Below, one piece after another: positions 21,203-64,000 of a stretch of DNA of 64,000 nt (its first letter is position 1; every line of letters begins with the position of its first letter). The stretch spans positions 7,754 through 71,753 of the forward strand of contig CALABV010000051.1 in NCBI GenBank assembly GCA_937886325.1, written 5' to 3'. This stretch comes from an uncultured Geobacter sp. GTDB taxonomy: Bacteria > Desulfobacterota > Desulfuromonadia > Geobacterales > Geobacteraceae. A program made the translations under genes and the position numbers. The notes under the pieces were generated by a model. It did not search any database. It was not told the DNA's origin and saw only the letters and a list, made by a program, of their open reading frames with translations.

Positions 21203-21213
21203 AGGGAGCCTGA

Positions 21214-22032
21214 ATGTCCTTTGCCGACATCATCCACTACGCATTTCTCCAACGGGCACTTCTTGCCGGGACACTCATAGCAATCCTGTGCTCCGTACTC
21301 GGCGTGTTTCTGGTGCTGCGCAGGCTCTCCCTCATCGGGGACGGACTTTCCCATGTGACATTCGGCAGCGTCGCCCTCGCCCTGCTGCTGCGCTTCCAGT
21401 CGGTCTACACCTCCCTCGCCGCGATTCCCTGCGTGCTCATCGCCGCCATCGGCATTCTGAAGATTGCCGACAAGGCCCGCATCTACGGCGACGCCGCCAT
21501 CGGCATCGTATCGTCACTGGGAATCGCCGTCGGCATCCTGCTCGCCAGCCTTGCCGGCGGCTTCAACGTCGACCTGTTCAGCTACCTCTTCGGCAACATC
21601 CTCTCCATCAGCCGCGCGGAGCTTGTGGTTACCGCCTGTCTGTTCATGGTCGTTCTGCTGAGCGTGGCGTTTTTCTATAACGAACTGTTTGCAATCACCT
21701 TTGACGAGGAACTTGCCGTGACATGCGGGGTCAGGGTGGAACGCATCAACGCGGTACTGGTGCTCCTTACGGCCCTGACGGTGGTGCTCGCCATGAAGGT
21801 CGTCGGGATCATGCTGATATCGGCGCTGCTGATCCTGCCGGCGGTCTCCGCACTGCAACTGGCGCGCGGCTTCAAGACCGCAATTCTCCTTTCTGCCTGC
21901 CTGGGAGTCGCCTCGGTGATCGGGGGGATCTTTCTCTCGTTCTTCATGGATCTCCCCACCGGCGCGACCATCATCATCATCAACTTTCTCCTGTTCGCAA
22001 CCTGCTTCATTCTGCGTACAACCAGAAAGTGA
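21214..22032 (+). CDS. znuB: Zinc ABC transporter permease
   Basis: 272-aa polytopic membrane protein of the ABC-3 type with SD AGGGAG. Operon position after znuA and znuC. Confidence 0.85.
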   Translation: MSFADIIHYAFLQRALLAGTLIAILCSVLGVFLVLRRLSLIGDGLSHVTFGSVALALLLRFQSVYTSLAAIPCVLIAAIGILKIADKARIYGDAAIGIVSSLGIAVGILLASLAGGFNVDLFSYLFGNILSISRAELVVTACLFMVVLLSVAFFYNELFAITFDEELAVTCGVRVERINAVLVLLTALTVVLAMKVVGIMLISALLILPAVSALQLARGFKTAILLSACLGVASVIGGIFLSFFMDLPTGATIIIINFLLFATCFILRTTRK

Positions 22033-41373: not shown

Positions 41374-41610
41374 ATGAGCATCGAGGAACAGCTGACAACC
41401 TATTTTCGCGAAAACTTTGCCGCTGATGTGGATGGCGAGACCGCGCTTATCGAATCCGGCCTCATCGACTCCATGGGGGTGATGGAGCTTGTGGAGTACC
41501 TGGAACGGTCGTTCGGCATCGAGATGGACATGGACGACCTGACCGTGGACCGGTTCGGCACCATCACGGCAATCAAACAGCTGATAACCGAGAAACAGGA
41601 GGCGATGTGA
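41374..41610 (+). CDS. Acyl carrier protein
   Basis: 78 aa, acidic, with phosphopantetheine-site context GLIDSMGVMELV. SD is GAGGTG. Confidence 0.85.
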   Translation: MSIEEQLTTYFRENFAADVDGETALIESGLIDSMGVMELVEYLERSFGIEMDMDDLTVDRFGTITAIKQLITEKQEAM

Positions 41611-45653: not shown

Positions 45654-45654
45654 T

Positions 45655-46824
45655 ATGTCTTCAATACATATCAATTCAATTGATCTGTATGCAACAAATG
45701 GTTTGATAAATTTTGACAATTTATCCTCCATTGAACCTTTATGGGGAATATGCATCGACAAAGAGGCCCCGTATTCACCATATTCTACCTGTGAATGGTA
45801 CAAGCTTTGGCTAACATATTTTATAAAAAATAACACAGCAAGATTATTGTCATTTCATGATGATAATAATGTAAATATAATAGTTCCACTGTTATACTCT
45901 AAATTTAAATACAGAGGTATATTTATATCAAAATATGAACCTATAGGCAATGTATATTCTCCGATACGCAATATGGCTATATACAGTAATTGTAGTTTTA
46001 TTGATAATATTGATATTGTATTTGAACAAATCATAAGCAATGAGAATAAATGGGATATCATCGACATTTGTGAGGTTTCTAACGAGAGCAATTGGTTCTC
46101 TTCAGCATCAGAATTCTTCATCAGGAAAGGATTAGATATCAGGGAATATGATTGTTACGAAAATTGTTATTCAGACTGCATAACTGGAACAAGTGAGGGG
46201 TACTTCAACAACAGATCAAAAAGTTTCAGATTGAGCATTAGAAAGAACTACAACAGGTTGTCAAAAGCCGGCGATATCAGCTTCAGGGTGATCACCGGGG
46301 TGGCCGATTGTTCTGACTATTACGATTTATACAGCAGCATATATTCAAAGAGCTGGAAACGGAGAGAGAGTATCGGACTAGACTTCTTTCCTGACATGCT
46401 CAGATATGCCGAGAAGAATAATTGGCTGAGAATTGGTATTGTGTATCTTAACGAGTGCCCGATTGCAACTGTATTTGTGGTTGTTGCAGGGAAGCATGCC
46501 TATTTCGAAAAAGTTGCTTTCGACGAAGAATTTCGGAACTTCGGCGCAGGGTCGGTGTGCCTTTATGAGATGATTAAATATGTAATAGATGTCGACAAGG
46601 TGTCCGTTATCGATTTCCTGAGAGGCGCTGATGAATACAAGAAGCATTGGGTTGCTAAATGCAGAAAAAGAAAAGGGATGATGATCTACAACAATACGAT
46701 TCGAGGCAAATATCTATCCTTTGTAGACAATAAAATAGCACCTTTTGTCAACAATAACAAATTTTTGTCAAATATAAAAAGAATAGTGGTATCGACTTAC
46801 AAAAATGCAGGCAATGTTGAATAG
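45655..46824 (+). CDS. CelD/BioF2-like GNAT (FemAB-related) acyltransferase, copy B
   Basis: ..STCEWYKLWLTYF.. and ..IDFLRGADEYKKHW.. parallel copy A. Very AT-rich. Confidence 0.7.
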   Translation: MSSIHINSIDLYATNGLINFDNLSSIEPLWGICIDKEAPYSPYSTCEWYKLWLTYFIKNNTARLLSFHDDNNVNIIVPLLYSKFKYRGIFISKYEPIGNVYSPIRNMAIYSNCSFIDNIDIVFEQIISNENKWDIIDICEVSNESNWFSSASEFFIRKGLDIREYDCYENCYSDCITGTSEGYFNNRSKSFRLSIRKNYNRLSKAGDISFRVITGVADCSDYYDLYSSIYSKSWKRRESIGLDFFPDMLRYAEKNNWLRIGIVYLNECPIATVFVVVAGKHAYFEKVAFDEEFRNFGAGSVCLYEMIKYVIDVDKVSVIDFLRGADEYKKHWVAKCRKRKGMMIYNNTIRGKYLSFVDNKIAPFVNNNKFLSNIKRIVVSTYKNAGNVE

Positions 46825-48034
46825 GATAGGAGGAAGATCTGCTGCTTCACTGTGCAGCTATTTATGCAGACGTGATAGATTTAATCAATTCCCGTTTCCT
46901 CTCAACAATGCTGGAGAAATGTATTATTTCAGCGCACGATATGCACTTTCGGCTGGGATACAAGCCCTTGGAATTAAAAAAGGTGAGACTGTCTTGTTGC
47001 CTGCGTATAATTGCGGAATAGAAATTGAGCCGTTTCATTATTTAGAAGTCAATATTGATTTTTATCGAGTAAATTATGACTTAACTTTTGACATTGAAGA
47101 TATTACTAGACGAATGCGGAAAGGAGTTAAAGCTGTTTTGATAACGCATTACCTGGGTTTTCCGCAAGCCGTAGAAGAAATCCGTGAACTTTGCAACAAA
47201 TGGAATGCGTATCTGATTGAAGACTGCGCACATGCGCTGCTTAGTTCAAGCAACGGGAAAGACCTCGGAACGACTGGTGACATCTCGGTTTTCAGCCTGT
47301 TGAAGACTCTCCCGGTGCCGAACGGTGGAGTGCTGGTAATCAATAACCCGAAAACCAGGGTTCAGAGAGAAGAGTGCAGACCCAGCGTCTTTTCGACACT
47401 TTACTACCTTGCCGATCTGAAGAGACAGAAAACCAGTTCCGACAACCTCGCCACGGCCCTTATGGAATATCTGGTCTCCTCACTATTCTGGCATGGGGTA
47501 AACGTGGCAAAGCTTGCAGCTGCGGCAGTTGCCAAAGTAACCGGTAGAAAGATAGTGTCCTTCGTACGGCCCGATTCATACGTTTTCAAATCTGAAATCC
47601 TGAATTGGGGGATGTCGCCCCTCTCAATCAACATCATTAACACAACAAATTTCGATCTGTTAAAGGAAAGAAGGAGGGATAATTTCAAACACCTTCTGAA
47701 AAGGCTCTTTCAGTCAGAAATCCGGCAAGAATTCGGTTTCCCCATCGAAACCCTTCCCAATGGGGTTTGTCCGCTCTTCTTTCCCCTTCTCGTCAAGGAA
47801 GACGGCAAGCGTGAATACCTGTACCTGGCGCTGAAGGAACAGGGGATTGCGTCTCACCCCTGGTGGGACAGGTTTCACCCCGCGGTTCCGTGGGAGGAAT
47901 TTCCGGAAGCGGTCACTCTCAAGGAGAGGCTGCTCGGGATCCCGATCCACCAGGATCTCACGTTCGAGCACCTGGATCGCATAATCCTGGAACTGGAAAA
48001 AATTTGTCGCACCTTGCGCACAAGCAATGTCTGA
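46805..48034 (+). CDS. DegT/DnrJ/EryC1/StrS-family PLP enzyme (sugar aminotransferase/dehydratase-like)
   Basis: ..LLPAYNCGIEIEP.., ..LITHYLGFP.., IEDCAHAL, and GDISVFSLLKTLPVPNGG (PLP Lys context). Confidence 0.75.
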   Translation: MQAMLNRIGGRSAASLCSYLCRRDRFNQFPFPLNNAGEMYYFSARYALSAGIQALGIKKGETVLLPAYNCGIEIEPFHYLEVNIDFYRVNYDLTFDIEDITRRMRKGVKAVLITHYLGFPQAVEEIRELCNKWNAYLIEDCAHALLSSSNGKDLGTTGDISVFSLLKTLPVPNGGVLVINNPKTRVQREECRPSVFSTLYYLADLKRQKTSSDNLATALMEYLVSSLFWHGVNVAKLAAAAVAKVTGRKIVSFVRPDSYVFKSEILNWGMSPLSINIINTTNFDLLKERRRDNFKHLLKRLFQSEIRQEFGFPIETLPNGVCPLFFPLLVKEDGKREYLYLALKEQGIASHPWWDRFHPAVPWEEFPEAVTLKERLLGIPIHQDLTFEHLDRIILELEKICRTLRTSNV

Positions 48035-49496
48035 TATCAAGGTACTGATAAAGCAGTCATCCCACTATTTTGCCGGACAGGCCGCGATACTGGCAGCGGG
48101 GTTCCTCTCCTTTCCCATCCTGACACGTATTTTCTCGGTAAGCGATTACGGGCTCATGAGCCTTGTCACAACCACGCTGTTCATCGCGGTGGCCATCGTC
48201 AAGTTCGGAATGCCTACCTCGATAGTGCGATTCTATGCCGAGTACCGTGCCTCCGGCAAGCTTTCCTCCTTCATGACAACGATTTTTCTCGGAGTCTCAA
48301 GCTTTGCGATACTTGCAGGCGCATTCCTTGTCCTAGGCATTCAGCTTTTCGGGGATCTTTTTCACGACAAGAATCTGACGGCTATGATTCCCATAGTGTC
48401 TCTGCTGATTGTTTCTGGCTCCATGAACGATATTTTCATGAGTTTCATGAGAGCCGAACAGAGGACAAGACTCTATAATATCATTGCAATCTGTAGAAGG
48501 TACATGACTCTGGCATTTGGCATCACCTTCACTCTGTATCTGATACAGGGTGTAAGAGGATTTTTTGTCGGTCAATTGTTATCCGGAATCATCATTTTTG
48601 TGGTTTTGCTCTTTCTTGCAAAGAAAATGTTTGTATTAAAGAAAGTATATTTCTCGAAGGATATTTTCAAGACTTCACTTAAATTCGGGTTTCCCTTAGT
48701 ATGGGCTGAATTCGGCCACCTGATCCTGAACTATGTCGACAGATACCTCATTCAGTTCTTTCTCGGAGCAGGCGCACTCGGAATGTATACAGCAGGCTAT
48801 AACCTCGCAACACACATAACCGAAGCAATAATCTACCCCATCAACTATGCAATGACACCGGTGTACATGTCTATTCTGGTAAATAAGGGAGAGACTGAAA
48901 CGAAAGTGTTTTTTACAAAGATGTTCAGGTATTTCATTCTTGTGCTGCTGCCGGTGGTGTTCGGAAGCATTGCCGTGGGAAGGGATCTGATCTCCATCCT
49001 GGCGTCAAAGAAATACCTTGAGTCTTACACCGTCCTTTCCTACGTGCTGATAGGCCAGGCGGTGTACGCCTGCACCATTATCCTCAACAGCGGCCTGTTC
49101 ATCAACAAGAAGACGCATGTGCTGAACAATATCATGATTGCAACATGCGGTATCAATGTGCTGCTCAATATGGCGCTGATACCACGCTTCGGAATCGTCG
49201 GCGCGGCCCAGGCGACTCTCCTTTCCTATATTCTGTATGCAATCGTGGTTGTTTTCTTCTCGTTCAGGGAATTCAGTTTCCATATCGATTTTCGCCGTAT
49301 CCTCCTGTACACAGGCTCGTCGTTCCTCATGTTTTTTACGGTAAAGACAATCGACGCAGGAAACAGCCTGCTGAATGTACTCATGCAGATTGTGGCAGGC
49401 GCCGCCGTTTACATCACAACGGTGGTGCTGTTCGACACGGAGATACGCCGCACCCTGTCGGCATCCATGGCAACCATACGGAATCGGGGTTCCTAG
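48027..49496 (+). CDS. wzx: Wzx-type polysaccharide flippase (MOP superfamily)
   Basis: 489 aa, ~12-14 hydrophobic helices, N-terminus typical of polysaccharide biosynthesis proteins (SHYFAGQAAILAAGFLSFPILTRIFS). Confidence 0.8.
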   Translation: MSDIKVLIKQSSHYFAGQAAILAAGFLSFPILTRIFSVSDYGLMSLVTTTLFIAVAIVKFGMPTSIVRFYAEYRASGKLSSFMTTIFLGVSSFAILAGAFLVLGIQLFGDLFHDKNLTAMIPIVSLLIVSGSMNDIFMSFMRAEQRTRLYNIIAICRRYMTLAFGITFTLYLIQGVRGFFVGQLLSGIIIFVVLLFLAKKMFVLKKVYFSKDIFKTSLKFGFPLVWAEFGHLILNYVDRYLIQFFLGAGALGMYTAGYNLATHITEAIIYPINYAMTPVYMSILVNKGETETKVFFTKMFRYFILVLLPVVFGSIAVGRDLISILASKKYLESYTVLSYVLIGQAVYACTIILNSGLFINKKTHVLNNIMIATCGINVLLNMALIPRFGIVGAAQATLLSYILYAIVVVFFSFREFSFHIDFRRILLYTGSSFLMFFTVKTIDAGNSLLNVLMQIVAGAAVYITTVVLFDTEIRRTLSASMATIRNRGS

Positions 49497-49500
49497 GGTG

Positions 49501-50520
49501 ATGAAAAAGCTGGTCAAGCAAGTCCTCTACCTGGTCGTGTACTATTCCGGCATGCTCCGCTTGCTGATAGCGCTTTGCGGAAGGCCCGGAAAAAACCATC
49601 GCGCAGTGTTCCTCTTCTACCACCGTTTCCGCCGCCCCGGCGAAGGCGCGAAGGACCTCCTGCCGCGACTGGATTGCGAAGAGTTCGACCGGCAAATGGC
49701 ATACCTGAAAAAAACCTACGAAATCGTGAGTCTCGATGACTCGGCAACCCTGCTTCGGGAGGGAAAGGGTTTCAGGCGACCTTCCATCATCCTGAGCATA
49801 GATGACGGGTACAGGGACAACTATACGCTGGCGTACCCGATTATCAGAAAACATGACCTGCCGATCACCATCTTCCTCACTGCCGGCTTCATCGGCGGGG
49901 ATGCGGGTCTCTGGCTTGACGACATCGAATACGCGCTCCGGAGCACGGCCTGTCAAGGTTTCAGTCTTGAGAAGGTCCTGGGGAAGGAACGGGTTGACAT
50001 CTCAAACCAAGAGGGGAAGAAAGACGCCGAAAAAAAATTATACGCCGCACTGGTGAAAAAAGGGAAACGGGAGAGGCAGGATGCCCTGCGGGAGCTGTTC
50101 TCCGTCCTGGATGTTCCCGAGCCGTCCGTTTCCGGCCGTGAGCGCATCATGATGAACTGGGAAGAAGTGAACGAGATGGCGGCAAACGGTGTAGATTTCG
50201 GGGCGCACTCCGTGTCGCACTCGTTCCTCCCCGCCATGCCTCCTGACGAGGCGAAACGGGAAATCCTGGACTCGAAACGGATTATCGAGGAAAAGACGGG
50301 GAGAACGGTGCGTCACTTCGCCATTCCCAACGGCAAGAACGATGATTTCTCCCTGGAATTGACGGAATTCTGCAAGGAAGCGGGTTTCGATACGGTCGTC
50401 ACCACCGAACCGGGAGTCGTTGGATGTTTTTCGGATCCCTATTCCCTTGCGAGAATACTTCCGCCACCTCCCACCTATTATTTTGCCTGCGAACTGGCAA
50501 GATACATGCTCAGGAGGTAA
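49501..50520 (+). CDS. Polysaccharide deacetylase (NodB domain), paralogue 2
   Basis: Start MKKLVKQV just after the wzx stop. Contains LSIDDGYRDN and FGAHSVSHSFL. Confidence 0.82.
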   Translation: MKKLVKQVLYLVVYYSGMLRLLIALCGRPGKNHRAVFLFYHRFRRPGEGAKDLLPRLDCEEFDRQMAYLKKTYEIVSLDDSATLLREGKGFRRPSIILSIDDGYRDNYTLAYPIIRKHDLPITIFLTAGFIGGDAGLWLDDIEYALRSTACQGFSLEKVLGKERVDISNQEGKKDAEKKLYAALVKKGKRERQDALRELFSVLDVPEPSVSGRERIMMNWEEVNEMAANGVDFGAHSVSHSFLPAMPPDEAKREILDSKRIIEEKTGRTVRHFAIPNGKNDDFSLELTEFCKEAGFDTVVTTEPGVVGCFSDPYSLARILPPPPTYYFACELARYMLRR

Positions 50521-50522
50521 AT

Positions 50523-51977
50523 GTGAAAAGCATCTCAACGAAAAACATCGGAAATAGCCCGGGATATTCGAATGATGAAGGCTATGCGGTACTGCTTGTG
50601 TTCCTTGTATGTATTGCTCTCTGTATTTTCAGTTTTCGGAATGTCATTGCTGCTGAAACAGCGAAGTCCCCTGTACCGAAAGAAGAGGGACATCGGGATA
50701 GGTATATCGTAGATGATCTGACGTTCTATTCGGTACCCGATGTTCCGAGACCCGCAAAAGGTGTTCCGTATCGTAATCCGGTCTTTGGAACAAGCATTAC
50801 CCGTATAACGGATGCTCCAGTGGATGTGCCCGGACGCCGTTTCAAATATGCGCAGGCAGGATATCCGAAGCACGACATTGAGAATGCCGACGGCACAAAG
50901 CTCATTATACAGAGTCTTTCGGCTTCAGGATGGAGCGTCTGGAATGCGAGACCGCCGTTCGATAAGCTGCATGATATTTCTTCCAGACTGATAGGTTGGG
51001 CAAGTCCGTTGGATGCCCGCTGGAGCATGAACGATCCCGCTATTCTGTATTACACATATCTGAAAAAGTTCTGGCGGTATAATGTCAACAGCAAAGAAGC
51101 GGAAGCAGTGCATGATTTCTATCAAGACTTCCCACCCCGGCCTGGAGAAAAATATCCCAGTTGCAGTCCCTCCATGGAGGAAGAGGGAACTCAGTCCGAC
51201 GACAACCGGTATTGGCCATTCACGATAAAGTGCTACGACCCCTCTCGAAAACAGAAAAATCTCGATGCTTGGTATCAGGCCGCGCAGATCGTTTTTGATC
51301 TTGAACAGAAAAAGATTGTTGCCGCACTTCCCGCTGGGGATCCGTATTTCAAACATGCAAATGCAATCATGGTATCACCGCGGGGAAACTATCTCATCAT
51401 CGGCGCGCCACCCTGTTTCGTGTACGACAGGAAGTGGAAATTCCTCTACAGGGCCGAGACGCACGGACACTACGACCTCGCCCTGGATGACGAGGGAAGG
51501 GAGGTCATCGTTACGGTCGGCCGCTACTACGGGCCCACCGGGATGAAAGACATGGGGGAGTGGGTGAAAATGATCGATCTCGAAACCGGGAAGACCCAGT
51601 GGCTTGCTCCACTCGACAACACCCTGTACCACGTCTCGGGCAATTGCACCGACAAACCGGGCTGGGCAGTCGTCTCAACCTATGCGCCATCCGACTTCAG
51701 AAAATCGGCAAGATGGAGTGACGATTCGGTCATCATGTACGAACTTACGCGACGCATACCTAAGCCTGACAGGGCTCATCATGCCTTGGTATGGCGGCTG
51801 GCGCACACGCACATGGTGAAAAAGAGCTACGGTGACGATCCGTTCGCCAAAACAAACAAAAAAGGGACGAAAGTTTGGTTCGGGTCTGGATGGGGCAATT
51901 CTTTTCGGGACGGACAATATGACGTCTATCAGATAGATCTTCCTGAAAACTGGGAGAAACAGATCAGAAAAAAATAA
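50523..51977 (+). CDS. Membrane-anchored hypothetical protein (no family recognised)
   Basis: GTG start 5 nt after AGGAGG. N-terminal anchor YAVLLVFLVCIALCIFSF. The rest is rich in W/Y/D/G, suggestive of a beta-rich extracytoplasmic domain. Confidence 0.6.
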   Translation: MKSISTKNIGNSPGYSNDEGYAVLLVFLVCIALCIFSFRNVIAAETAKSPVPKEEGHRDRYIVDDLTFYSVPDVPRPAKGVPYRNPVFGTSITRITDAPVDVPGRRFKYAQAGYPKHDIENADGTKLIIQSLSASGWSVWNARPPFDKLHDISSRLIGWASPLDARWSMNDPAILYYTYLKKFWRYNVNSKEAEAVHDFYQDFPPRPGEKYPSCSPSMEEEGTQSDDNRYWPFTIKCYDPSRKQKNLDAWYQAAQIVFDLEQKKIVAALPAGDPYFKHANAIMVSPRGNYLIIGAPPCFVYDRKWKFLYRAETHGHYDLALDDEGREVIVTVGRYYGPTGMKDMGEWVKMIDLETGKTQWLAPLDNTLYHVSGNCTDKPGWAVVSTYAPSDFRKSARWSDDSVIMYELTRRIPKPDRAHHALVWRLAHTHMVKKSYGDDPFAKTNKKGTKVWFGSGWGNSFRDGQYDVYQIDLPENWEKQIRKK

Positions 51978-55768: not shown

Positions 55769-55832
55769 CCCTCGACTCCTCAACCCTTCAACCCCTAGAA
55801 TCCTTGACCCCTAGAACCCATGAACCCTAGAA
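55769..55832 (+). repeat. C-rich arm of the four-helix-bundle cassette
   Basis: CCCTCGAC TCCTCAAC CCTTCAAC CCCTAGAA TCCTTGAC CCCTAGAA CCCATGAA CCCTAGAA: eight 8-nt units complementary in pattern to the G-rich arm. It contains the ATG of the next gene. Confidence 0.8.
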
Positions 55833-56668
55833 TTATCAACGGCCTCAGCTTTGATATCGAAGACTGGTTCCAGGTGGAGAACCTGAAAGGCGCCATCTCG
55901 GCGGACAGCTGGGATCGGTGCGACCTGCGGGTAGTGGAAAATACCCGGCGGATCCTTCGCATCCTTGAAAGAAGCGATACCAAGGCCACGTTCTTCATCC
56001 TCGGCTGGATTGCGGAACGATGCGCGGGGCTGGTGGAGGAAATTGCCGCGGCCGGCCACGAAATCGCAAGCCACGGCTACAGCCACGAACTCATCTACAA
56101 ACTGGATGCGTCTGCATTCGCCCGGGACCTGGGTAGGTCGAAGAGCGTCATCGAAGCAATCACCGGCCGTCCGGTGCGCGGCTACCGCGCCCCCTCCTTC
56201 TCCCTCACCCCGGAAACGGGTTGGGCGCTGGACGTCCTCCGTGAACTTGATTTTTCCTATGATTCCAGCGTATTTCCCACGTCGTTTCATGACCGCTACG
56301 GTTTCAAGGGTTCCTCGCGCTTCCCGTTCCGCCACCGGAACGGGCTGGTCGAGCTTCCCCTGTCCACGGTCAGGATCCGTCGCTTCAACCTTCCGGCAGC
56401 GGGTGGAGGGTATTTTAGGCTGTTCCCCTATATCCTCTTCCGTCACCTGGGACTGAGTATCAACCGGGAAGGCAAGCCGATGATTTTCTACCTCCACCCA
56501 TGGGAGCTGGACCCCGGTCAGCCGCGTCTGCCGATCCGGCGCGATTACCGCTTCCGTCATTACGTGAACCTGGACCGCACCGAACCGAGGCTTGAAAGGC
56601 TCCTGAAGGAATTTCCGTTCGAACCTCTCGGAGACCTTGCGGAACGGTTTTTCTCTACCGCGGGGTAA
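55820..56668 (+). CDS. Polysaccharide deacetylase of the XrtA/PEP-CTERM-locus type (NodB-like + DUF3473-like C-terminus), paralogue 3
   Basis: MNPRIINGLSFDIEDWFQVENL.., FFILGWIAE, ASHGYSH, and C-terminal ..YLHPWELDP. Confidence 0.85.
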   Translation: MNPRIINGLSFDIEDWFQVENLKGAISADSWDRCDLRVVENTRRILRILERSDTKATFFILGWIAERCAGLVEEIAAAGHEIASHGYSHELIYKLDASAFARDLGRSKSVIEAITGRPVRGYRAPSFSLTPETGWALDVLRELDFSYDSSVFPTSFHDRYGFKGSSRFPFRHRNGLVELPLSTVRIRRFNLPAAGGGYFRLFPYILFRHLGLSINREGKPMIFYLHPWELDPGQPRLPIRRDYRFRHYVNLDRTEPRLERLLKEFPFEPLGDLAERFFSTAG

Positions 56669-56697
56669 AGAGGCGAAGACACGTTTTCGTTACGGAT

Positions 56698-57846
56698 ATG
56701 GAAAAACACTATAGGATAGATGAAACAATCTTGCGGCTGCTCATGTGGTTCGGGGCGATTCTGATCCTCCATGCGCTCTTCGGATGCGCTTCCCCGCGCA
56801 GTGCCGCCGGGCCCGAGGATGAGCAGTACGGGAAATATCTGCGGCTGGTTCGCGCCCAGTTCAAGGAGGATCCGCTGATCGGCATCTGGCAGGGGAGCAA
56901 GGGAGGCCGTCCGGTGCTTCTGGCCGTGGTTCTGAATGACGAAGGCGGCTCGGAAAAGCTGAAGGCGGTGATCATCAACGGCGATGAATATGCCTTCGGC
57001 TACAGCAACGGGGACCCGTGGTTGTACGTTTCGCCCCTGGCGCAGAGGGGCGTGTATGCGGGCAAGGTTTCCCACAAGCCGCTGCTGTGGACCGAATGGT
57101 ATCCGACGAAAGTGTCGCTCAACAACTACAACCAGTTCACGGAGTACGACGATTTCCCCGCCAATGTCAAGGCGGTCGGCGGCAAAGTCACCACCTACCT
57201 GCGCAAGGAGCCGCGCATCGTCGCCATCGACACGCTCCTCCGGGCCGGGGGGAGCGGTTTTCTCCTGTGGAATTCCGCGTATATTGTGACGGCGAATCAC
57301 GTGCTCGGGAAGGCCGCGAAGGTGTCAGCGCGCTTTCCCGACGGAACCGTGTACCCGGCGGAGCCGGTGGCGAGAGATGCGCGTCTGGACCTGGCAGTCC
57401 TGAAGCTTGAAGGGTTTACCGCTTCCGGGGAGAGGGGACTGCGCATCCAGAGATCGCCCGCGGTCGCGGCCGGCGAGACCGTGCATGCCATCGGCTATCC
57501 GCTCGGCGCGGCCCTGAGCAAGGACCCGAGCATCGTGTCCGGCCAGGTGAGCGCCACGTCCGGTCTCCACGACGCGGCCCATCAGTTCAGGTTGACAGCG
57601 CCCATCAACCCCGGCAACAGCGGGGGACCGATCCTCAATACGCACGGCGCCGTGGTCGGTGTGGCCCTGGCGGTCATCCGTCAGCCGAAGATTGAAGGCG
57701 TTGCCTTCGGCATCAAGATCGGATCGTATCTGCCGATGCTGGAGAAACTCCCCTACACCTTCCCGGACGTTTCCGATCAGGAGATGGGGGCGGAAGAGGT
57801 CTTCCGGGCCTGTTCCCGCGATGTGGTTTTTCTTTTCGGAAAATAG
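56698..57846 (+). CDS. Lipoprotein with C-terminal trypsin-like (S1C) serine protease domain
   Basis: Lipobox LHALFGC. Triad contexts TANHVL, DLAVLKL, GNSGGPIL. The N-terminal ~190 aa match no family I recognise. Confidence 0.8.
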   Translation: MEKHYRIDETILRLLMWFGAILILHALFGCASPRSAAGPEDEQYGKYLRLVRAQFKEDPLIGIWQGSKGGRPVLLAVVLNDEGGSEKLKAVIINGDEYAFGYSNGDPWLYVSPLAQRGVYAGKVSHKPLLWTEWYPTKVSLNNYNQFTEYDDFPANVKAVGGKVTTYLRKEPRIVAIDTLLRAGGSGFLLWNSAYIVTANHVLGKAAKVSARFPDGTVYPAEPVARDARLDLAVLKLEGFTASGERGLRIQRSPAVAAGETVHAIGYPLGAALSKDPSIVSGQVSATSGLHDAAHQFRLTAPINPGNSGGPILNTHGAVVGVALAVIRQPKIEGVAFGIKIGSYLPMLEKLPYTFPDVSDQEMGAEEVFRACSRDVVFLFGK

Positions 57847-57884
57847 CGACCTGAAAAGCAAGGCTCTTCAATTCGATGACCATT

Positions 57885-58070
57885 TAGAGCTTGTTCGTAA
57901 ATAACGTTACGAGAGATCGCGCCCGGATTTATGACAGACTTGGCCGGGCTGATTGAGCAAAACCGCAAACGTAGCAGGGCTACGTCGAGGATTTTGTGAT
58001 TGAGGCACGGTCAAAGATGGCGTGAAGACGGGATGCGACCCTGGAATGTTTATTTACGAACAAACTCTTA
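57885..58070. repeat. Inverted-repeat-flanked non-coding element (~186 nt)
   Basis: Left arm TTAGAGCTTGTTCGTAAATAAC and right arm GTTTATTTACGAACAAACTCTTA (14-nt perfect core TTGTTCGTAAATAA, ~19/21 overall) flank ~136 nt holding two small hairpins (GCCCGG..CCGGGC and CGTAGC..GCTACG). Confidence 0.6.
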
Positions 58071-58114
58071 GTCAAAGTGCGCATTACCATTGCCTGCAGG
58101 GGAAAAGATACGAC

Positions 58115-59143
58115 ATGAATTTTCTTAAGCGGATGTTTTTCTTCCTGTTGTGGCTACTGCAGGTTCACCACTTCTGCAGATATGTACATCGCCGTAAAGT
58201 AGTTGTTCTCGCATACCATGGAGTTGTAGATGATGACGACGGTGGTCTCTGGACGTTGCTTCCCGCACGCCGTTTCAGGGAACAGATAGAATATTTGAAC
58301 AAATATTATTCGGTGATCTCTATCGACATGCTTGCCGATTTTGTTGAGGGAAAGGCCACGATTCCCGACAACAGTGTTGTCATAACATTTGATGACGGTT
58401 ATCGGAACAACCATGATATTGCATTCCCGGTTCTGCTTGAATACAAAACCCCTGCAACGATTTTTGTGACCAGCGGGATTATAGACAGACAGGAACTGTC
58501 GTGGTTCGATGAGATAGCAGTTTCTTTGGAAACCTACAAAGGGAAGCTTGAATTGCCGCCACTGGAAATGGCGGTATCAGTAACCGACACCAATCGGCAG
58601 ATTGTCACCGAAATGCTTATCCAGAGGACGAAAAGACTTTGTCCGGACCTTCGTTCCACAGTTCTTTCGGTTGTAAGAGATTTGCCCGCCAGCGGGGAAG
58701 CAAAAAGGCATCGCATGAAGGAGAATCTGATGCCATTGAACTGGAACCAGGTACGAACGTTGAACGCCTCCCCGCTTATTACCATTGGAGCTCATACATC
58801 CGATCACACGATCCTCACCACATGCTCCCTTGAATACGCACGCGAGCAGATTCTAGAATCTAAACGCAGCATCGAACGGAATATCAATGAGCATGTCGAC
58901 TATTTCGCCTATCCGAACGGAACTCATCGGGACTTCGACGAGGATATACAAAACTGCCTGAAGGGGCATGATTTCAGGCTTGCATGCACGACAATCAAGA
59001 AATTCGTTGACAAGGGGACTAATCCTCTTGAGGTTGGCAGGTTCTGTGTGGGAAACGACCTGACGTCCTGGCTTCCCTATTTCAGTTTGAATTTGTCAGG
59101 ATTCAGCAGAATGCCTAGTTGTAGAAAACGTGTTGCGGTCTGA
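58115..59143 (+). CDS. Polysaccharide deacetylase (NodB domain), paralogue 4
   Basis: Start MNFLKRMFFFLLWLL (TM anchor). Contains VLAYHGV, VITFDDGYRNN and GAHTSDHTIL. Confidence 0.82.
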   Translation: MNFLKRMFFFLLWLLQVHHFCRYVHRRKVVVLAYHGVVDDDDGGLWTLLPARRFREQIEYLNKYYSVISIDMLADFVEGKATIPDNSVVITFDDGYRNNHDIAFPVLLEYKTPATIFVTSGIIDRQELSWFDEIAVSLETYKGKLELPPLEMAVSVTDTNRQIVTEMLIQRTKRLCPDLRSTVLSVVRDLPASGEAKRHRMKENLMPLNWNQVRTLNASPLITIGAHTSDHTILTTCSLEYAREQILESKRSIERNINEHVDYFAYPNGTHRDFDEDIQNCLKGHDFRLACTTIKKFVDKGTNPLEVGRFCVGNDLTSWLPYFSLNLSGFSRMPSCRKRVAV

Positions 59144-59211
59144 AAGTGAGCCTTTTGCAGTTTCATCAGGTCCGGAGATCATTGGACAAATAATGGAAGG
59201 CGGCCCCGCTG

Positions 59212-60336
59212 ATGGGTAAAACCGGAATTCTCTATATCATTCCATTGCTTTCCGGGTACGCAGGAACGGAAAGGCATCTGCTGGCATTGACAAGCAACCT
59301 GGATCGCAGCCGGTTTACTCCCCATGTGGCTTGCTTCCGCAGCAGTACCAAAGTCATACAGGCTTTTCAGGCGGCTGGAGTTCCGTGCACCACCTTTGAA
59401 ATGACAAGGATCTACGGCATCGACGCAGTGAAAAACGCTCTGAAAATACGGCGCTATATCATGGAGAACAACATAAGGATCCTTCAGACATTTCACCCAA
59501 AGGCCGATATGTATTGCCCTCTTGTCGGGAAACTGAGTTCCGTCCCACACATTATCTCAAGTCGAAGAGATCTTGGGTATAATCGCAGTAACATAGTAGT
59601 ACAGAAATTTATCAATCGCTTCGTGGATTGGTTTATTGCACCTTCAAACAAAGTCAGAGAATTCACGATGCGCCAGGAGAAGGTGCCTGAATCTATGTTT
59701 CGCATCATTTATAATGGAGTGGATACAGATCATTACAAACCGTTGGAAAACAAGAAGGATATGAGGTTGAAGTTGGGTCTGCCTGAGAAAGGCACTATCG
59801 TAGTCATTGTCTCCAATCTTTACAAGATCAAGGGTGTTGATTTCTTCATTAGAGCGGCACGCTCTGTGGCTGAAGTTATCTCCAATACTTTTTTCGTCAT
59901 CATCGGAGATGGCAGGGAGAAGCAGAATCTACTCGACTTGACTGCAGAACTTGGTATGGGAGATAGAATCATTTTTACCGGTAACATTGCAAACGTGGTC
60001 GAATACCTCGGATCTGCTGATCTGTATGTTTGCTCCTCCCTTTCAGAAGGATTTTCTAACAGCATCCTCGAAGCCATGGCCATGGGATTGCCCGTCGTAG
60101 CTACTGACGTAGGCGGAAATCCTGAGGCCGTTACTGACGGTGTGACGGGATTTCTCGTGGAAAAGGGGCATGTTACGGATATTGCTGAAAAAATCATCTC
60201 CATTCTCCGGGACCCGGAACTCGGGCTCTCTTTAGGAAGGTGCGGCAGAAGAGTTACGGAAGAAAAATACAGCCTCAAGAAAATGATCCGTGAATATGAG
60301 GGACTTTATGCGGAACTGATTCATGGATCCAGATAG
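59212..60336 (+). CDS. Family-4 (GT-B) glycosyltransferase
   Basis: C-terminal EGFSNSILEAMAMGLPVVATDVGGNPEAV..G.L motif. 374 aa. Confidence 0.88.
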   Translation: MGKTGILYIIPLLSGYAGTERHLLALTSNLDRSRFTPHVACFRSSTKVIQAFQAAGVPCTTFEMTRIYGIDAVKNALKIRRYIMENNIRILQTFHPKADMYCPLVGKLSSVPHIISSRRDLGYNRSNIVVQKFINRFVDWFIAPSNKVREFTMRQEKVPESMFRIIYNGVDTDHYKPLENKKDMRLKLGLPEKGTIVVIVSNLYKIKGVDFFIRAARSVAEVISNTFFVIIGDGREKQNLLDLTAELGMGDRIIFTGNIANVVEYLGSADLYVCSSLSEGFSNSILEAMAMGLPVVATDVGGNPEAVTDGVTGFLVEKGHVTDIAEKIISILRDPELGLSLGRCGRRVTEEKYSLKKMIREYEGLYAELIHGSR

Positions 60337-60339
60337 GAC

Positions 60340-61902
60340 GTGGCGATGACTGTAAAGGATCTTTCAGCGTATGTGGAACAGGCTCACAAAATGTGCGGAA
60401 AAAGGGCCAAGTCCACCATTCTCGACATGCTGGAAAAATCGAGGATATCCATACCTGACGTCCAGGTTTTTTTTGAAAGACCAGAGCAGAACATGGGACC
60501 CTTCAACAGCCTTCCGCTTTCAATGAGGAATTCTTTCCGGGAATCAGCTCTTTTCCATCTACAGGAACAATACTGTCTGACGTCTCGTATTCTTGCCTGG
60601 CTATCGTACGGACCAATGTTCATATTCGGCGTCACGCTCGTGCGATGTGGAAAATATCTGAGGAACATTTACGGATGGAATCGATCGCGGCACATCATGT
60701 GTCTGACCGGCAAGTTCATTAGCTTTTCCGGGAAATGCCTTATTCGCGGTATGCAATACACTGCTGAAGCGATACTGCATACATTACGCTTTACCAGACT
60801 CTATGCCATGCCGCCACTGTTTGCTCTGTGGCGGTTTGCCGATGTTGATGCTGACAGACTGCTTTATCATTACATTACCGGGATCCCCAGCGATCCGAGG
60901 ATTACCCCCGTTTTCAAGACAACGTCTTCTCATGTTGAGGGGTGCGGATTGATAGGTATCGATTTGCTCCCCTCAGACGGTAAACTGTATTTCCTGGAAA
61001 GCAACTGGAACCCAGCCCTGCGAGATATACGATTGGACTTGTACCCCGATGGAGACCCGGTCTGCGGTCACCTTTTGGATTATGCGGCACAACGCAGTTT
61101 CCGGAAGATAATCTTCCACCCCTACAATTTCCTCATGTGTTTCGAAGAGCGGTCCGAACGTGCATGGCATAAGCTTGCGAAAGAGCGGGGTATTGCACTT
61201 GAGATAATTGATGATCCCTTGTTCAGTTCCCCTTTCCCGCGTAAGAGCCATTTCTTCGTCGACCCGGTGGGATATGAAGATACTCTTTTTGTAACAGGCA
61301 GATATTTCAAGTCAAATCCCCTCACGAGACTGGTAGCGCAAAAAGGGTTCCTTGAGGAAATCATACGGGAAAAAAAAGATTCCAGTGATACCGGAAATGC
61401 CGTGTCCGTACCGAAATCAGTCGTCTCTGATGCCGATATCCCTGCCGTTTCGGATGAATCTCTCTATCCAAACCTGATAGTAAAAGATGTATGTACCGAT
61501 TGTGCGAAAGGAATCAGACTTTTCAAGACCAGGGAACTACCCCCTGGCGTAAACACTTGGCCTTTCAAGGCATACGAGTATGTAAGAACCGATACCGTTC
61601 GATGCGGACAGAATGATACCGGTGACGAGCATGTCAGGATCTTCAGGTCTCACCTTCTCATCACCCCTCTTGGTCCAGTGTATCTGGGCGCGCACGCCGT
61701 TGTAGCACGGACATCGATTCCGAAGACTCTCGAATACGGCGAAGTGGAAGACATATCTCCCTATATTGCGAATTTCTCCGCGGGTGCACGTTATGAAAGG
61801 GTTTCCAAAGACGAAGATAACGCTTGCAGAAGCACTACCATTGCAATTGGCCGGATAGTTGACGGATTTCTTAGAACAAAGATGAATATCGAATGCACAT
61901 GA
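60340..61902 (+). CDS. Hypothetical 520-aa protein with possible degenerate ATP-grasp-like segments
   Basis: No family recognised. GLIGIDLLPSDGKLYFLESNWNPAL resembles the E-x-N metal-binding strand of ATP-grasp enzymes. Start is GTG 60340 or ATG 60346. Confidence 0.55.
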   Translation: MAMTVKDLSAYVEQAHKMCGKRAKSTILDMLEKSRISIPDVQVFFERPEQNMGPFNSLPLSMRNSFRESALFHLQEQYCLTSRILAWLSYGPMFIFGVTLVRCGKYLRNIYGWNRSRHIMCLTGKFISFSGKCLIRGMQYTAEAILHTLRFTRLYAMPPLFALWRFADVDADRLLYHYITGIPSDPRITPVFKTTSSHVEGCGLIGIDLLPSDGKLYFLESNWNPALRDIRLDLYPDGDPVCGHLLDYAAQRSFRKIIFHPYNFLMCFEERSERAWHKLAKERGIALEIIDDPLFSSPFPRKSHFFVDPVGYEDTLFVTGRYFKSNPLTRLVAQKGFLEEIIREKKDSSDTGNAVSVPKSVVSDADIPAVSDESLYPNLIVKDVCTDCAKGIRLFKTRELPPGVNTWPFKAYEYVRTDTVRCGQNDTGDEHVRIFRSHLLITPLGPVYLGAHAVVARTSIPKTLEYGEVEDISPYIANFSAGARYERVSKDEDNACRSTTIAIGRIVDGFLRTKMNIECT

Positions 61903-61907
61903 ACTGA

Positions 61908-63011
61908 ATGTGGGAGTGCGGAATGATCTTCTCTTCTCTGATTAACAAGCTTTTGCTCAGAGCCAGAAAAATAGGGAAAAATGAGATAAATGTGTATTCT
62001 CTTGAGAATTCCTTCTACGCATTTGAAGCGAAGAAGATGGGAATGCGTTCACAACTGCTGGCAGGGGATATCCTGCAGGTGCAAAACGGTTGCCAGTCAT
62101 TCAATATCTGGCATTGCGGTACTGATTTTGACGGCTGGGGCTCTCTCAAACTGGCCGGCGACAAGTCGCATTGCTATGCACGGTTGAGACAAGAAGGCAT
62201 CCCCATCCCCACCCATGCCGTCCTCAAGTCGGGTGATTACCATGGAGTAATGAAATTCAGGCAATCAATCAACAACTCCCCCGTCGTCATCAAGCCGGCA
62301 AGAGAGACCGGCGACGGCGACGGTGTGTGCATCAAGCCCGAAGGCCACCTCGAGACACTGTTCGCAGTGTTTTTTGCAGGGTCATTCGGCAGACAGATTA
62401 TTGTGGAAGAATTCCGCGAAGGAGAGAACTACCGCCTTCTCTATTGCAGGGGAAAGTTCCTCGCCGCCAGTTCCCGAAATCCCGCGACCGTCGAGGGAGA
62501 TGGAGTGCATACGATTCGCCGGCTGATTGAAAGAATGAACCAGGGGAGACGGAAAGTCGGTGACATTGTTGCCTATTGTCCGGAAACTCGACCGATATTG
62601 TACAAGGTTCCCCTTACAAGGGAAACCGCGAGGTCTTTGGCGAAACAGCGTTATTCCCTTGATTCGATTCCTCCGCGTGGCACCATTGTTCGCCTGCAGG
62701 ATATCTGTCACTGGTTGCGCGGCGGGCACTACCGTGATGTCAGCGATGTCATTTCTCCCGAAATCATCGAAATGGGAAGGAGAGCAGCTCATGCCGTCGG
62801 CATTCATTTGGCCGGAGTGGATGTGATTGCGGAGAGCATTACGCATCCCTTCAGTAATCGCTTTGTCATCAACGAAGTCAACACCACGCCCGGTATTCTT
62901 ATTCATTATGAAATTATAAACCCGTCATGCAGACGACCGGTCGCGAAAAAACTGCTGGAAAGCTTCATGTACGGATCCGACTACTCCGCAGGCGGAGGGT
63001 TCCAGTCATGA
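61908..63011 (+). CDS. ATP-grasp ligase resembling the N-terminal domain of cyanophycin synthetase / RimK-type ligases
   Basis: VVIKPARETGDGDGV, IVEEFREGENYRLLYCRGKFLAASSR, VEGDGVHTIRRLIERMN, GVDVIAE...FVINEVNTTPGILIH. An internal ATG at 61923 has the better SD. Confidence 0.75.
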   Translation: MWECGMIFSSLINKLLLRARKIGKNEINVYSLENSFYAFEAKKMGMRSQLLAGDILQVQNGCQSFNIWHCGTDFDGWGSLKLAGDKSHCYARLRQEGIPIPTHAVLKSGDYHGVMKFRQSINNSPVVIKPARETGDGDGVCIKPEGHLETLFAVFFAGSFGRQIIVEEFREGENYRLLYCRGKFLAASSRNPATVEGDGVHTIRRLIERMNQGRRKVGDIVAYCPETRPILYKVPLTRETARSLAKQRYSLDSIPPRGTIVRLQDICHWLRGGHYRDVSDVISPEIIEMGRRAAHAVGIHLAGVDVIAESITHPFSNRFVINEVNTTPGILIHYEIINPSCRRPVAKKLLESFMYGSDYSAGGGFQS

Positions 63012-63697
63012 CAATTCCGATTTACGGGAGAGTACGCTGGCTCCTCTCGTCCATTTTTTCATGCAGAGTCGTGCTGATACATTCACTCTCGTGCAGAAAC
63101 GAAATGCCGGCAAGCGACGCGGAAGGCAGCTACCGTTTTTCAAAGCTGACGGAATCTGATATTCCTGATCTCATGCATTTCCACGACACCTTCATCACGA
63201 AATGGAACAACATCTTTTCGCGGGACGATGTTTCCGCAAGATTGCGAAAAGGCCACCGGTGTTATCTTGCTCGGAAGAACGGCGAAATTGTTGGGTGTTA
63301 CTGGGTTGCATTCGATTCAGTGTACTCGCCTGACCTGAGATGCATCTTTGTTCTGAGCGAAGGATGCTTCGCAGACTATAATTTATTCGCCCGACCAGAC
63401 TGCCGTGGAGAGGGAATCACGCAAATACTCCGAGGAAAGGCCTTCACGGAACTGCGTCAGGAAGGCTATGAAACTTGCTATGATTACCTGAGTTCCAGAA
63501 ACACGCCTATCATCAAATGCAACAAAAAGTCCGGAGCCGTCACTGTCGGAAAAATCTATTACGGCTACCTTTTCGGCTGTTACTATCTTTTGTCTGTCAT
63601 CCCCAGGAAAGAAGGTATCAGGGTCGGCCGCGTTGAAGATTGTTTTTTTCGCTGGCGTAAGTTATTGAAGAAGCGATGCAGAGGTAGTCATACTTAA
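63008..63697 (+). CDS. GNAT-family N-acetyltransferase
   Basis: ATGA overlap with the ATP-grasp stop. ..GEIVGCYWVAF..LFARPDCRGEGITQILRGKAFTEL.. is a GNAT motif-A-like context (R-x-x-G-x-G). Confidence 0.65.
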   Translation: MTIPIYGRVRWLLSSIFSCRVVLIHSLSCRNEMPASDAEGSYRFSKLTESDIPDLMHFHDTFITKWNNIFSRDDVSARLRKGHRCYLARKNGEIVGCYWVAFDSVYSPDLRCIFVLSEGCFADYNLFARPDCRGEGITQILRGKAFTELRQEGYETCYDYLSSRNTPIIKCNKKSGAVTVGKIYYGYLFGCYYLLSVIPRKEGIRVGRVEDCFFRWRKLLKKRCRGSHT

Positions 63698-63786
63698 AAG
63701 TCTCCCTTGTAAAGTATATTTCCATTTCACCTTACTTCATGTAAAATTTATATCTTGTTATTCTACACATCTGATCGGATGTAGTG

Positions 63787-64000
63787 ATGAACACGATAAC
63801 ATTCATTAACAACTTAAGATTTACTGTATTGTTCAATATCAAACATCTCATAGCAGGTATTTACCATCTACTAATAATTTATTTTTGTAAAGATAAACAT
63901 TCATTCAATTTATGGAAAAACATATTTCATTTTTGCACTATAAATATTGTAAACGGAATCACCATAAAAGAATATCTTGAATTTAACATGACATCGTCTC
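63787..64000 (+). CDS. Partial ORF running off the window in a very AT-rich segment (hypothetical)
   Basis: Open frame from ATG 63787 (or GTG 63784) to the window end: MNTITFINNLRFTVLFNIKHLIAGIYHLLIIYF... No stop and no homology recognised. Confidence 0.3.
   Translation, partial: MNTITFINNLRFTVLFNIKHLIAGIYHLLIIYFCKDKHSFNLWKNIFHFCTINIVNGITIKEYLEFNMTSS

Follow-up and report, generated by a model that had tools for sequence, protein, structure and literature searches.

Ligases of the ATP-grasp superfamily are already known from surface-polysaccharide loci, and glutathione and glutathionylspermidine synthetases are known to have a circularly permuted form of their fold. In Campylobacter jejuni, capsule glucuronate is amidated before chain extension by the TupA-like ATP-grasp domain of Cj1438 (PMC11800379), and linked ATP-grasp and GNAT genes have been read as successive ligations followed by acyl capping (PMC4431377). 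The stretch analysed here, hereafter the window, is 64 kilobases (kb) of contig CALABV010000051.1 from an uncultured Geobacter sp.; all coordinates are window positions unless a locus number (L001 etc.) is given. Near its 3′ end lie three consecutive genes, for an ‘orphan’ protein that matches no curated family, a ligase resembling cyanophycin synthetase (the CphA-like ligase) and a divergent acyltransferase (GNAT1). Judged by its predicted structure, the orphan is soluble and belongs to the ATP-grasp superfamily, as a carboxylate-amine ligase of an unnamed family with an extra N-terminal helical domain. The ligases of this cassette probably decorate a sugar of the exopolysaccharide (EPS), step by step, with an N-acylated substituent made of an amino acid or a short peptide.

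The label ‘orphan’, given in the initial annotation, holds for curated family models only. Neither phmmer nor profile searches of Pfam, NCBIfam and PDB sequences matched the protein, and the profile of its family retrieved only noise from the PDB sequences. Sixteen family members matched none of the permuted ATP-grasp Pfam families (GSP_synth, CP_ATPgrasp_1/2 and eukaryotic glutathione synthetase) even at E <= 10, ten distant members gave only sub-threshold RimK and PRK06849 fragments against Pfam and NCBIfam, and hhalign comparisons with the CphA-like family and with YgiC yielded nothing significant, only suggestive alignments of the D/E-x-N hairpin. Full-length homologs do exist, however: 15 were found among 5.8 billion clusters, at 31–41% identity, and the profile has 208 matches among 1.84e9 representatives. 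Eleven orphan loci came from a metagenome collection, and three from 185,579 species genomes, a lower bound because that scan used an exact peptide pattern which a homolog of the L015 type escaped.

An AlphaFold (AF2) model of the orphan, built from a 16-sequence alignment, reached a predicted local distance difference test score (pLDDT) of 90.1 and a predicted template-modelling score of 0.89. Its eight best Foldseek matches in the PDB (E 2.3e-6 to 4.1e-3, probability 0.93–1.0) include 3k1t and 3n6x of Methylobacillus, YjfC and YgiC of Escherichia coli, yeast glutathione synthetase, soybean homoglutathione synthetase and the fungal Cp1B; the probability is 1.0 for 3k1t, YjfC, 3n6x, YgiC and the yeast enzyme. 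Within E <= 4.1e-3, every match belongs to one structural class and is either a carboxylate-amine ligase or a protein resembling one. The orphan is neither a glycosyltransferase nor a pseudogene, two of the outcomes that the initial annotation had named as fatal to its proposal. The helical N-terminal domain is absent from distant members of about 440 amino acids, which align from profile position ~176 onwards. That this domain is a membrane anchor was ruled out, its highest 19-residue hydropathy being 1.45 and not conserved across the family, and no transmembrane segment is predicted in the orphan. Given an N-terminal domain without a conserved hydrophobic stretch, the protein is predicted to be soluble and cytoplasmic.

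The order of its motifs, with residue roles assigned by analogy, indicates that the orphan is circularly permuted in the manner of glutathionylspermidine synthetase and eukaryotic glutathione synthetase, the latter reportedly the classic circularly permuted ATP-grasp. In the orphan the first of these motifs is a GID208...E220-S-N222 hairpin, followed by a helix with K335, a strand with K382, the hinge YEYV at 412–415, and then R436 and N478. YgiC follows the same order, with an RLD...LLENN hairpin at 100–117 whose position and spacing agree with those in the orphan, helix residue K267, K302 on an xVVK strand and a hinge at 335. The adjoining CphA-like ligase has the opposite, classical order: helix residue K86, K129, a hinge at 166 and, last, the hairpin with D305, E323 and N325. 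Hence the orphan hairpin precedes the ATP-binding half, whereas in a classical ATP-grasp the same motif comes at the end. Weak matches to a RimK C-terminal motif coincide with the orphan hairpin, and in the distant relative P0138 such a match (158–195) precedes a match to the ATP-grasp central domain (298–381).

Conservation over 122 orphan relatives, a set that reaches down to E ~1e-9, is 100% for D208 and N222, 99% for K382, 97% for R436 and 95% for both E220 and K335. The initial annotation had taken the E-x-N strand YFLESNWNP as reminiscent of a second, degenerate ATP-grasp. The strand does belong to a genuine ATP-grasp Mg-binding hairpin, but the protein is not degenerate, because its Mg triad, lysines and R436 are 95–100% conserved; it is permuted with its catalytic residues kept and, by this conservation, appears catalytically intact. 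It is highly improbable that the orphan is instead a catalytically dead, degenerate ATP-grasp serving as scaffold or substrate-binding subunit for the adjoining ligase. Such a role would fit the failure of sequence-level ATP-grasp models, the replacement of the R-x-D arginine by glycine and the additional helical domain, a possible site of contact with other proteins. Yet the conservation pattern of the Mg triad, both lysines and R436 is that of an active enzyme, and arrays of orphan paralogs occur without a partner ligase in L003, L024 and L026.

Among the orphan’s top structural matches, YgiC, YjfC and the synthetase domain of glutathionylspermidine synthetase (7uk6, 7uk8 and 7uka; peptide-spermidine ligases) share its permuted order, and their chemistry, in which an amine attacks a carboxylate acyl-phosphate, may extend to the orphan by inference. 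Similarity to YgiC is undetectable in sequence, however; YgiC reads R-L-D where the orphan reads G-I-D, and, unlike YgiC, the orphan starts with a helical domain of ~155 residues and has, towards its C-terminus, an N-x3-G-A segment with a helix. The genomic settings also differ, the YgiC/YjfC class belonging to the tolC-ygiB region or to polyamine and thiol metabolism and the orphan to polysaccharide loci. The eukaryotic glutathione synthetase (1m0w), homoglutathione synthetase (3kal) and Cp1B (9cjn) match the orphan structurally at 8–13% identity. In Cp1B the catalytic residues R139, D141, E163 and N165 lie N-terminal to the ATP-binding domains, like the orphan’s hairpin. The products of these enzymes are cytosolic thiols or a protease inhibitor rather than polymers of the cell surface.

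For the CphA-like ligase, the kinship with cyanophycin synthetase claimed in the initial annotation was borne out. The strings VEGDGVHTIRRLIERMN and FVINEVNTTPGILIH, quoted there together with YFLESNWNP, are all found in the translations. The ligase aligns with residues 155–472 of 7lg5 (E 8e-31, ~30% identity), spanning Gcore, Glid and G-omega, and scores 177 bits with NF010623 against 35 bits with the D-Ala-D-Ala ligase model TIGR01205 (cutoff 245.65). It does not cluster with those cell-wall enzymes, another outcome that would have refuted the proposal of the initial annotation. Every score of a named subfamily stays far from membership: the NF010623 match compares with a cutoff of 877 and covers profile positions 178–472 only, TIGR02068 gives 168 bits (cutoff 850) and TIGR03103, the NAGGN synthetase model, 100 bits (cutoff 569, E 1.5e-28). 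PF07478 just passes its cutoff of 24 with 24.7 bits over the first 85 model positions only, and a 14-bit match to ATPgrasp_ST (PF14397) does not make the protein a member. D-Ala-D-Ala ligase, cyanophycin synthetase and NAGGN synthetase were accordingly rejected as identities on scores, architecture and substrate residues.

Mapping of CphA1 residues through the 7lg5 alignment separates the catalytic machinery from the substrate pocket. The catalytic residues K261, R309, D431, E450 and N452 of CphA1 (G domain structures 7lg5 and 7wac) correspond to K129, R176, D305, E323 and N325, and these five do not vary in any of the 21 homologs. By contrast, the aspartate-recognition residues N394, S396 and R458 and the P-loop H267 are replaced by H268, L270, L331 and D136, the majority residues family-wide; R458 binds the alpha-carboxylate of the incoming aspartate, one of the functional residue roles described for CphA1 (PMC9427784). 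The N and M domains of CphA1 are absent. We therefore regard the protein as a stand-alone homolog of the G domain, predicted from its residues to be catalytically intact with a remodelled amine-substrate pocket; it would use a different nucleophile from CphA1, possibly one lacking a free alpha-carboxylate.

Scores below cutoff, replaced aspartate-recognition residues and missing N and M domains together argue that the ligase is no cyanophycin synthetase or aspartate polymerase. The poly-amino-acid appendage suggested as an alternative in the initial annotation is consequently unlikely in any cyanophycin-like form, given N394H, S396L, R458L and the lost domains. A broader version, in which the cassette makes a free poly-amino-acid or small peptide (cyanophycin-like, a NAGGN-like osmolyte or a glutathione-like thiol) and its place in an EPS locus is incidental, could appeal to the best named matches of the ligase, which are cyanophycin synthetase, NAGGN synthetase and GshAB. 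It could also appeal to the AsnB-like amidotransferases of several loci, as in the NAGGN trio, and to the glutathione synthetases among the orphan’s structural neighbours. We consider it very improbable, since those matches fall far under the family cutoffs (177 against 877 and 100 against 569 bits), the CphA1 features just described are missing, and in lineages unrelated to one another the cassette lies repeatedly amid genes for GT4, Wzx, Wzy and deacetylases, with one copy fused to GT4. In the NAGGN synthetase Ngg, a GNAT and ATP-grasp fusion with AsnO as partner, the ATP-grasp half is homologous to the CphA-like ligase, and the combination of GNAT, ATP-grasp and AsnB-like genes recurs in related loci. 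It differs in that the GNAT here is a separate gene in reverse order that does not match the Ngg model, and in its setting, an osmolyte operon rather than an EPS locus.

The third protein is a GNAT, as first annotated (PF00583, 26.4 bits against a cutoff of 20.7, residues 70–170), and a divergent one. Its CoA loop, expected to read Q/R-x-x-G-x-G/A, reads R133-G-E-G-I-T, with only R133 invariant among six homologs. A search of PDB sequences gave no significant match, the homolog search returned a single 93%-identical copy, and the AF2 model, from a two-sequence alignment, had a pLDDT of 38.

All three plus-strand open reading frames (ORFs) of the initial annotation are present, and their junctions are as it described: 5 nucleotides (nt) separate TGA 61902 from ATG 61908, or 20 nt if the alternative ATG 61923 is taken, and an ATGA overlap at 63008–63011 joins the last two. 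The GT4 stop (60336) lies 3 nt before the orphan GTG (60340). Two near-identical contigs, L013 and L014, are 97% identical to and collinear with window 57802–64000; on them the orphan is called at ATG 60346 (518 amino acids), probably its true start, and the CphA-like ligase at the alternative ATG 61923 (362 amino acids). The lower GC of this region was also confirmed, at 0.41–0.53 over 57.5–64 kb against 0.58–0.63 in the core of the locus. Promoter and terminator scans for operon signals did no better than shuffled sequence.

The initial annotation erred over the boundaries, calling this a terminal three-gene module at the edge of the locus. A fourth ORF, from ATG 63787, begins 89 nt after GNAT1 and leaves the window; its translation matches the N-terminus of a 384-amino-acid protein of L014 (phmmer 1.5e-33) that scores 137 bits with PF14397. 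It was missing from the ORF lists because its stop codon does not fall within the window, and since it continues off the window the ‘terminal’ position is an artefact of the window edge. Beyond GNAT1, L013 and L014 carry ATPgrasp_ST, GNAT2, a 389-amino-acid ATP-grasp-like protein related to other ATP-grasp paralogs, the exosortase EpsH/XrtA, EpsI and another GT4; XrtA and EpsI thus lie outside the window, 2.9 kb past its end. With this continuation, the cassette comprises at least six ligase and acyltransferase genes (orphan, CphA-like, GNAT1, ATPgrasp_ST, GNAT2 and ATP-grasp-like), of which the window holds the first half, and it lies between GT4 and XrtA, inside the locus. In sum, what the initial annotation observed was largely right and its interpretation right in direction, with wrong boundaries and several wrong particulars. 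The fourth gene is a true member of ATPgrasp_ST (‘sugar-transfer associated ATP-grasp’), a family to which the orphan and the CphA-like ligase do not belong and whose name ties it to sugar transfer.

To place the cassette in a wider context, profiles of the three proteins were run against six-frame ORFs of every fetched locus. The orphan, the CphA-like ligase and the two GNAT types occur together in five independent polysaccharide loci, in shuffled order and with further ATP-grasp paralogs, which fall into two recurring families. The order orphan, CphA-like, GNAT1, ATPgrasp_ST, GNAT2 is found in the window, L013, L014 and L018. L004 has GNAT2, an ATP-grasp-GT4 fusion, CphA-like, GNAT1 and orphan; L001 and L002 have GT4, CphA-like, GNAT2, ATP-grasp, frameshifted CphA-like fragments, GNAT1, orphan, ATP-grasp and AsnB. 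In L015, GT4, GNAT1 and orphan are followed 5.6 kb on by GT4, CphA-like, GNAT2 and three more ATP-grasp paralogs, and L011 combines DegT, FemAB-like, orphan and CphA-like. Two loci lack the orphan: L016 has the CphA-like gene followed by GNAT1 and GNAT2, and L017 has it between a deacetylase and two FemAB-like genes.

That this neighbourhood is kept despite its shuffled order is good evidence for functional coupling of the cassette genes. GNAT1 stands directly upstream of the orphan homolog in three independent loci (L001, E 1e-61; L004, 1e-56; L015, 4e-40), and GNAT2 follows the CphA-like ligase in two. Homologous deacetylases adjoin the CphA-like ligase in L004, L016 and L017, and GT4 genes flank the cassette in L001, L004, L015 and L016. 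Genes that could be linked to amino-acid supply lie nearby, namely Glu/Leu-type dehydrogenases (L003, L015) and an alanine racemase (L010). The fusion in L004 (3796–6162) is a 788-amino-acid protein that joins an ATP-grasp domain of CPSase_L_D2 type (paralog family X) to GT4, and ligation there is therefore physically tied to sugar transfer, as in Cj1438.

The surrounding DNA is a textbook XrtA/PEP-CTERM exopolysaccharide locus, in keeping with the setting first proposed. Nine components score above their curated cutoffs: PrsT, the priming transferase TIGR03013, TIGR03027, TIGR03007, TIGR03018, the outer-membrane protein TIGR03016, the ATPase TIGR03015, the decarboxylase TIGR03099 and the deacetylase TIGR03006, with an export protein, a chain-length determinant and a tyrosine kinase among their roles. 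The same locus encodes an AsnB-like amidotransferase, a formyltransferase, an AMP-binding ligase, two FemAB-like Acetyltransf_6 proteins, a DegT aminotransferase, a Wzx flippase and four CE4 deacetylases in all. One of these deacetylases opens the low-GC cassette (Table 1) and could supply a free sugar amine. The GT4 gene that follows it scores 179 bits with TIGR03088, below the cutoff of 409.

Two ATP-grasp ligases of different topology and GNAT1 are thus tightly packed in one transcriptional direction inside a polysaccharide locus, and the most likely model is one in which the enzymes act in succession. Each ATP-grasp ligase would use ATP to phosphorylate a carboxylate and would then transfer its acyl moiety to an amine. 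Acting one after another in the cytoplasm, the ligases would furnish a sugar of a lipid-linked or nucleotide-linked repeat unit with a side chain of one amino acid or a short peptide, and the GNATs would cap free amines by N-acylation. The decorated unit would then be flipped, polymerised and exported by Wzx and the PEP-CTERM machinery. The attachment point would most likely be a sugar amine generated by a deacetylase or aminotransferase of the locus, with a uronic-acid carboxylate as a possible alternative. A sugar amine is favoured because the locus is rich in deacetylases and has an aminotransferase, no sugar dehydrogenase was seen among the ORFs scanned and the CphA-like ligase has lost the arginine for an alpha-carboxylate; this attachment is the weakest link of the argument.

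Attachment to uronic acids, as put forward in the initial annotation, found no specific support. None of the 42 window ORFs scanned matches a UDP-sugar 6-dehydrogenase model (the ORFs 2509–3483, 7555–8850, 11799–13019 and 50424–51977 are without annotation), whereas the four CE4 deacetylases and DegT make sugar amines. If the ligases did join amino acids to the C6 carboxylate of a uronic acid, the sugar would provide the phosphorylated carboxylate and the amino acid the nucleophile. Precedent for this exists in the C-terminal ATP-grasp of Cj1438, which amidates glucuronate in the capsule (PMC11800379); an ATPgrasp_TupA gene adjoins the orphan homolog in L008, and from Cp1B it is clear that enzymes of this structural class can also activate acids that are not amino acids. 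We nevertheless think such attachment unlikely, in view of the missing dehydrogenase (whose gene could sit elsewhere in the genome), a locus rich instead in enzymes that generate sugar amines, and a CphA-like ligase without R458, the residue that in CphA1 holds the alpha-carboxylate of the incoming amino acid. The likeness to Cj1438, an ATP-grasp in a surface-polysaccharide locus that is fused to a glycosyltransferase like the L004 protein, has further limits: its ATP-grasp family, PF14305, is matched by none of the three window proteins, its amines are serinol phosphate or ethanolamine phosphate, and it is a single ligase with no GNATs.

The position of XrtA raises the question of whether the cassette modifies proteins, for instance by adding amino acids or amines to PEP-CTERM proteins, or whether it constructs the acceptor on which the exosortase XrtA acts. 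In L013 and L014 the cassette ends directly at XrtA and EpsI, an exosortase-like match lies near the L005 homolog, and YgiC and YjfC join spermidine to the C-termini of peptides (NCBI product name; Pederick 2023, as cited). Most orphan and CphA-like loci, however, contain Wzx, Wzy, glycosyltransferase and AsnB genes and lack an exosortase; L004 has its ATP-grasp-glycosyltransferase fusion, and no gene for a PEP-CTERM substrate adjoins the cassette, all of which makes protein modification improbable. At similarly long odds, the cassette beside XrtA might build an amine-bearing peptide stem on the EPS that is the long-sought acceptor for PEP-CTERM proteins attached by the exosortase. Such a stem would parallel the attachment of proteins by sortase to the peptidoglycan cross-bridge built by FemAB, and the permuted ATP-grasp family would be the ATP-dependent counterpart of the FemAB-family protein in XrtA loci.

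Several observations weigh against stepwise assembly of a substituent on an EPS sugar, or against the part assigned to the orphan in it. The arginine of the R-x-D motif (R139 in Cp1B, R100 in YgiC) is glycine (G206) in 98% of the orphan family, and mutagenesis shows that Cp1B needs it for activity; R231 (89%) and R436 (97%) are candidate substitutes. Foldseek TM-scores are low, at 0.25–0.30 normalised to the query, for which the unmatched N-terminal domain and domain movements could account, and sequence profiles (Pfam, PDB profile search and hhalign) tie the orphan to no named family. Within 8–10 kb of the orphan, roughly every second locus has neither a CphA-like ligase nor GNAT1. Some of these partnerless loci have another ATP-grasp instead, namely a TupA-like one (L008), an ATPgrasp_Ter-like one (L005) or a family-X paralog (L019), and others have tandem orphan paralogs (L003, L024 and L026). 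The neighbours of the more distant family members are not EPS genes but Zn transporters, a laccase-like gene, a symporter or BacA. The acetyl-CoA loop of GNAT1 is poorly conserved and its predicted model unusable. Finally, CE4 deacetylases are often extracytoplasmic, and ATP-dependent ligation is impossible there.

New in this work are a ligase family without a curated model, with an extra domain and an altered active-site motif, the link of this family to polysaccharide loci, and a recurring cassette of several ligases and GNATs, here directly beside XrtA. The orphan represents a rare family, and its permuted topology had until now been associated with the metabolism of thiols and polyamines. 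The cassette, which occurs in surface-polysaccharide loci of mostly uncultured anaerobes, has as many as five ATP-grasp ligases together with two or three GNATs. If the model of stepwise assembly is right, peptide-like side chains of polysaccharides are made without ribosomes, non-ribosomal peptide synthetases or Mur ligases, and enzymes for the amino-acid decoration of glycans, which is common in O-antigens and mostly unassigned, become directly testable. The cassette also offers a concrete starting point for the chemistry of polymers associated with PEP-CTERM and XrtA. A contig with a homologous cassette carries a protein named as Desulfonatronovibrio hydrogenovorans, a possible cultured host.

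Table 1. Positions of the cassette genes, their main features and associated genes (window positions unless a locus is named)
Feature	Position	Strand	Remarks
CE4 polysaccharide deacetylase	58022..59143	+	PF01522, 77 bits; first gene of the low-GC cassette
GT4 glycosyltransferase, PEP-CTERM ‘stp2’-like	59212..60336	+	PF00534, 145 bits
‘Orphan’ ligase, 520 amino acids	60340..61902	+	GTG start listed, TGA end
Orphan N-terminal all-helical domain, residues ~1–155	60340..60804	+	DSSP on predicted model
Orphan putative Mg/acyl-phosphate hairpin GIDLLPSDGKLYFLESN (G206, D208, E220, N222)	60955..61005	+	
Orphan putative ATP-binding half: K335, PNLIVK382, hinge YEYV 412–415, R436	61342..61647	+	
CphA-like ligase, 367 amino acids	61908..63011	+	Stand-alone G-domain homolog, classical order, G-omega-like insert
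GNAT1, 229 amino acids, divergent acyltransferase	63008..63697	+	PF00583
ATPgrasp_ST gene, 5′ end	63787..64000	+	Translation MNTITFINNLRFTVLFNIKHL...; runs past window end
FemAB-like Acetyltransf_6, first of tandem	44373–45653		Second low-GC cassette
FemAB-like Acetyltransf_6, second of tandem	45655–46824		Second low-GC cassette
DegT aminotransferase	46805–48034		Second low-GC cassette
Wzx flippase	48027–49496		Second low-GC cassette
~335-amino-acid conserved protein	L001 328–1326		
~335-amino-acid conserved protein	L015 6819–7838		
~335-amino-acid conserved protein	L016 6848–7843		
~335-amino-acid conserved protein	L017 13344–14387		

The related loci hold further features. At 6249–7172 of L001 and L002, immediately before GNAT1 and the orphan, three ORF fragments in different frames each match the CphA-like ligase, of which an intact copy lies 3 kb upstream beside GNAT2; the fragments suggest a frameshifted pseudogene, and a ligase-GNAT pair that was duplicated and is decaying. 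The tandem arrays comprise two or three orphan paralogs (L003 8001–9629 and 11038–12687; L024 9646–13197; L026 6470–11506), and that of L024 includes an apparent 1183-amino-acid ORF that may be a fusion or a frameshift artefact. The conserved ~335-amino-acid protein listed in Table 1, which has no Pfam match, accompanies the CphA-like cassette in four loci with pairwise E of 1e-30 to 1e-99. Proteins of ~940–1040 amino acids with PcRGLX_2nd (rhamnogalacturonan-lyase-like) matches lie at cassette edges (L001 13761–16592, L015 18256 onward, L016 139–3054) and could be polymer-processing enzymes.

The window itself contains a second cassette of amide-forming and amino-sugar genes at 44373–49496, with GC even lower (0.35–0.42), and its adjacency of DegT and FemAB-like genes recurs in L011, there followed by the orphan. 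Just upstream, a 585-amino-acid ORF (42650–44407) overlaps the AMP-binding gene at 41607–43166; because its decarboxylase match starts at residue 176, this ORF is over-extended, with a true start probably near 43175. A trypsin-like protease of HtrA type without PDZ is encoded at 56698–57846 (+), between the TIGR03006 deacetylase and the next deacetylase, and the related locus L017 likewise has a Trypsin-family gene at its border (17793 onward). The long minus-strand ORFs 55811–56560 and 56560–57300 overlap well-supported plus-strand genes in a region of 60% GC and are almost certainly GC-driven artefacts. Just upstream of PrsT, a ZnuABC-type transporter (19464–22032) precedes a histidine kinase and a sigma-54 response regulator (22564–25022), which are probably locus regulators of PrsK/PrsR type; in L021 the distant orphan homolog, too, has a Znu-type transporter beside it.

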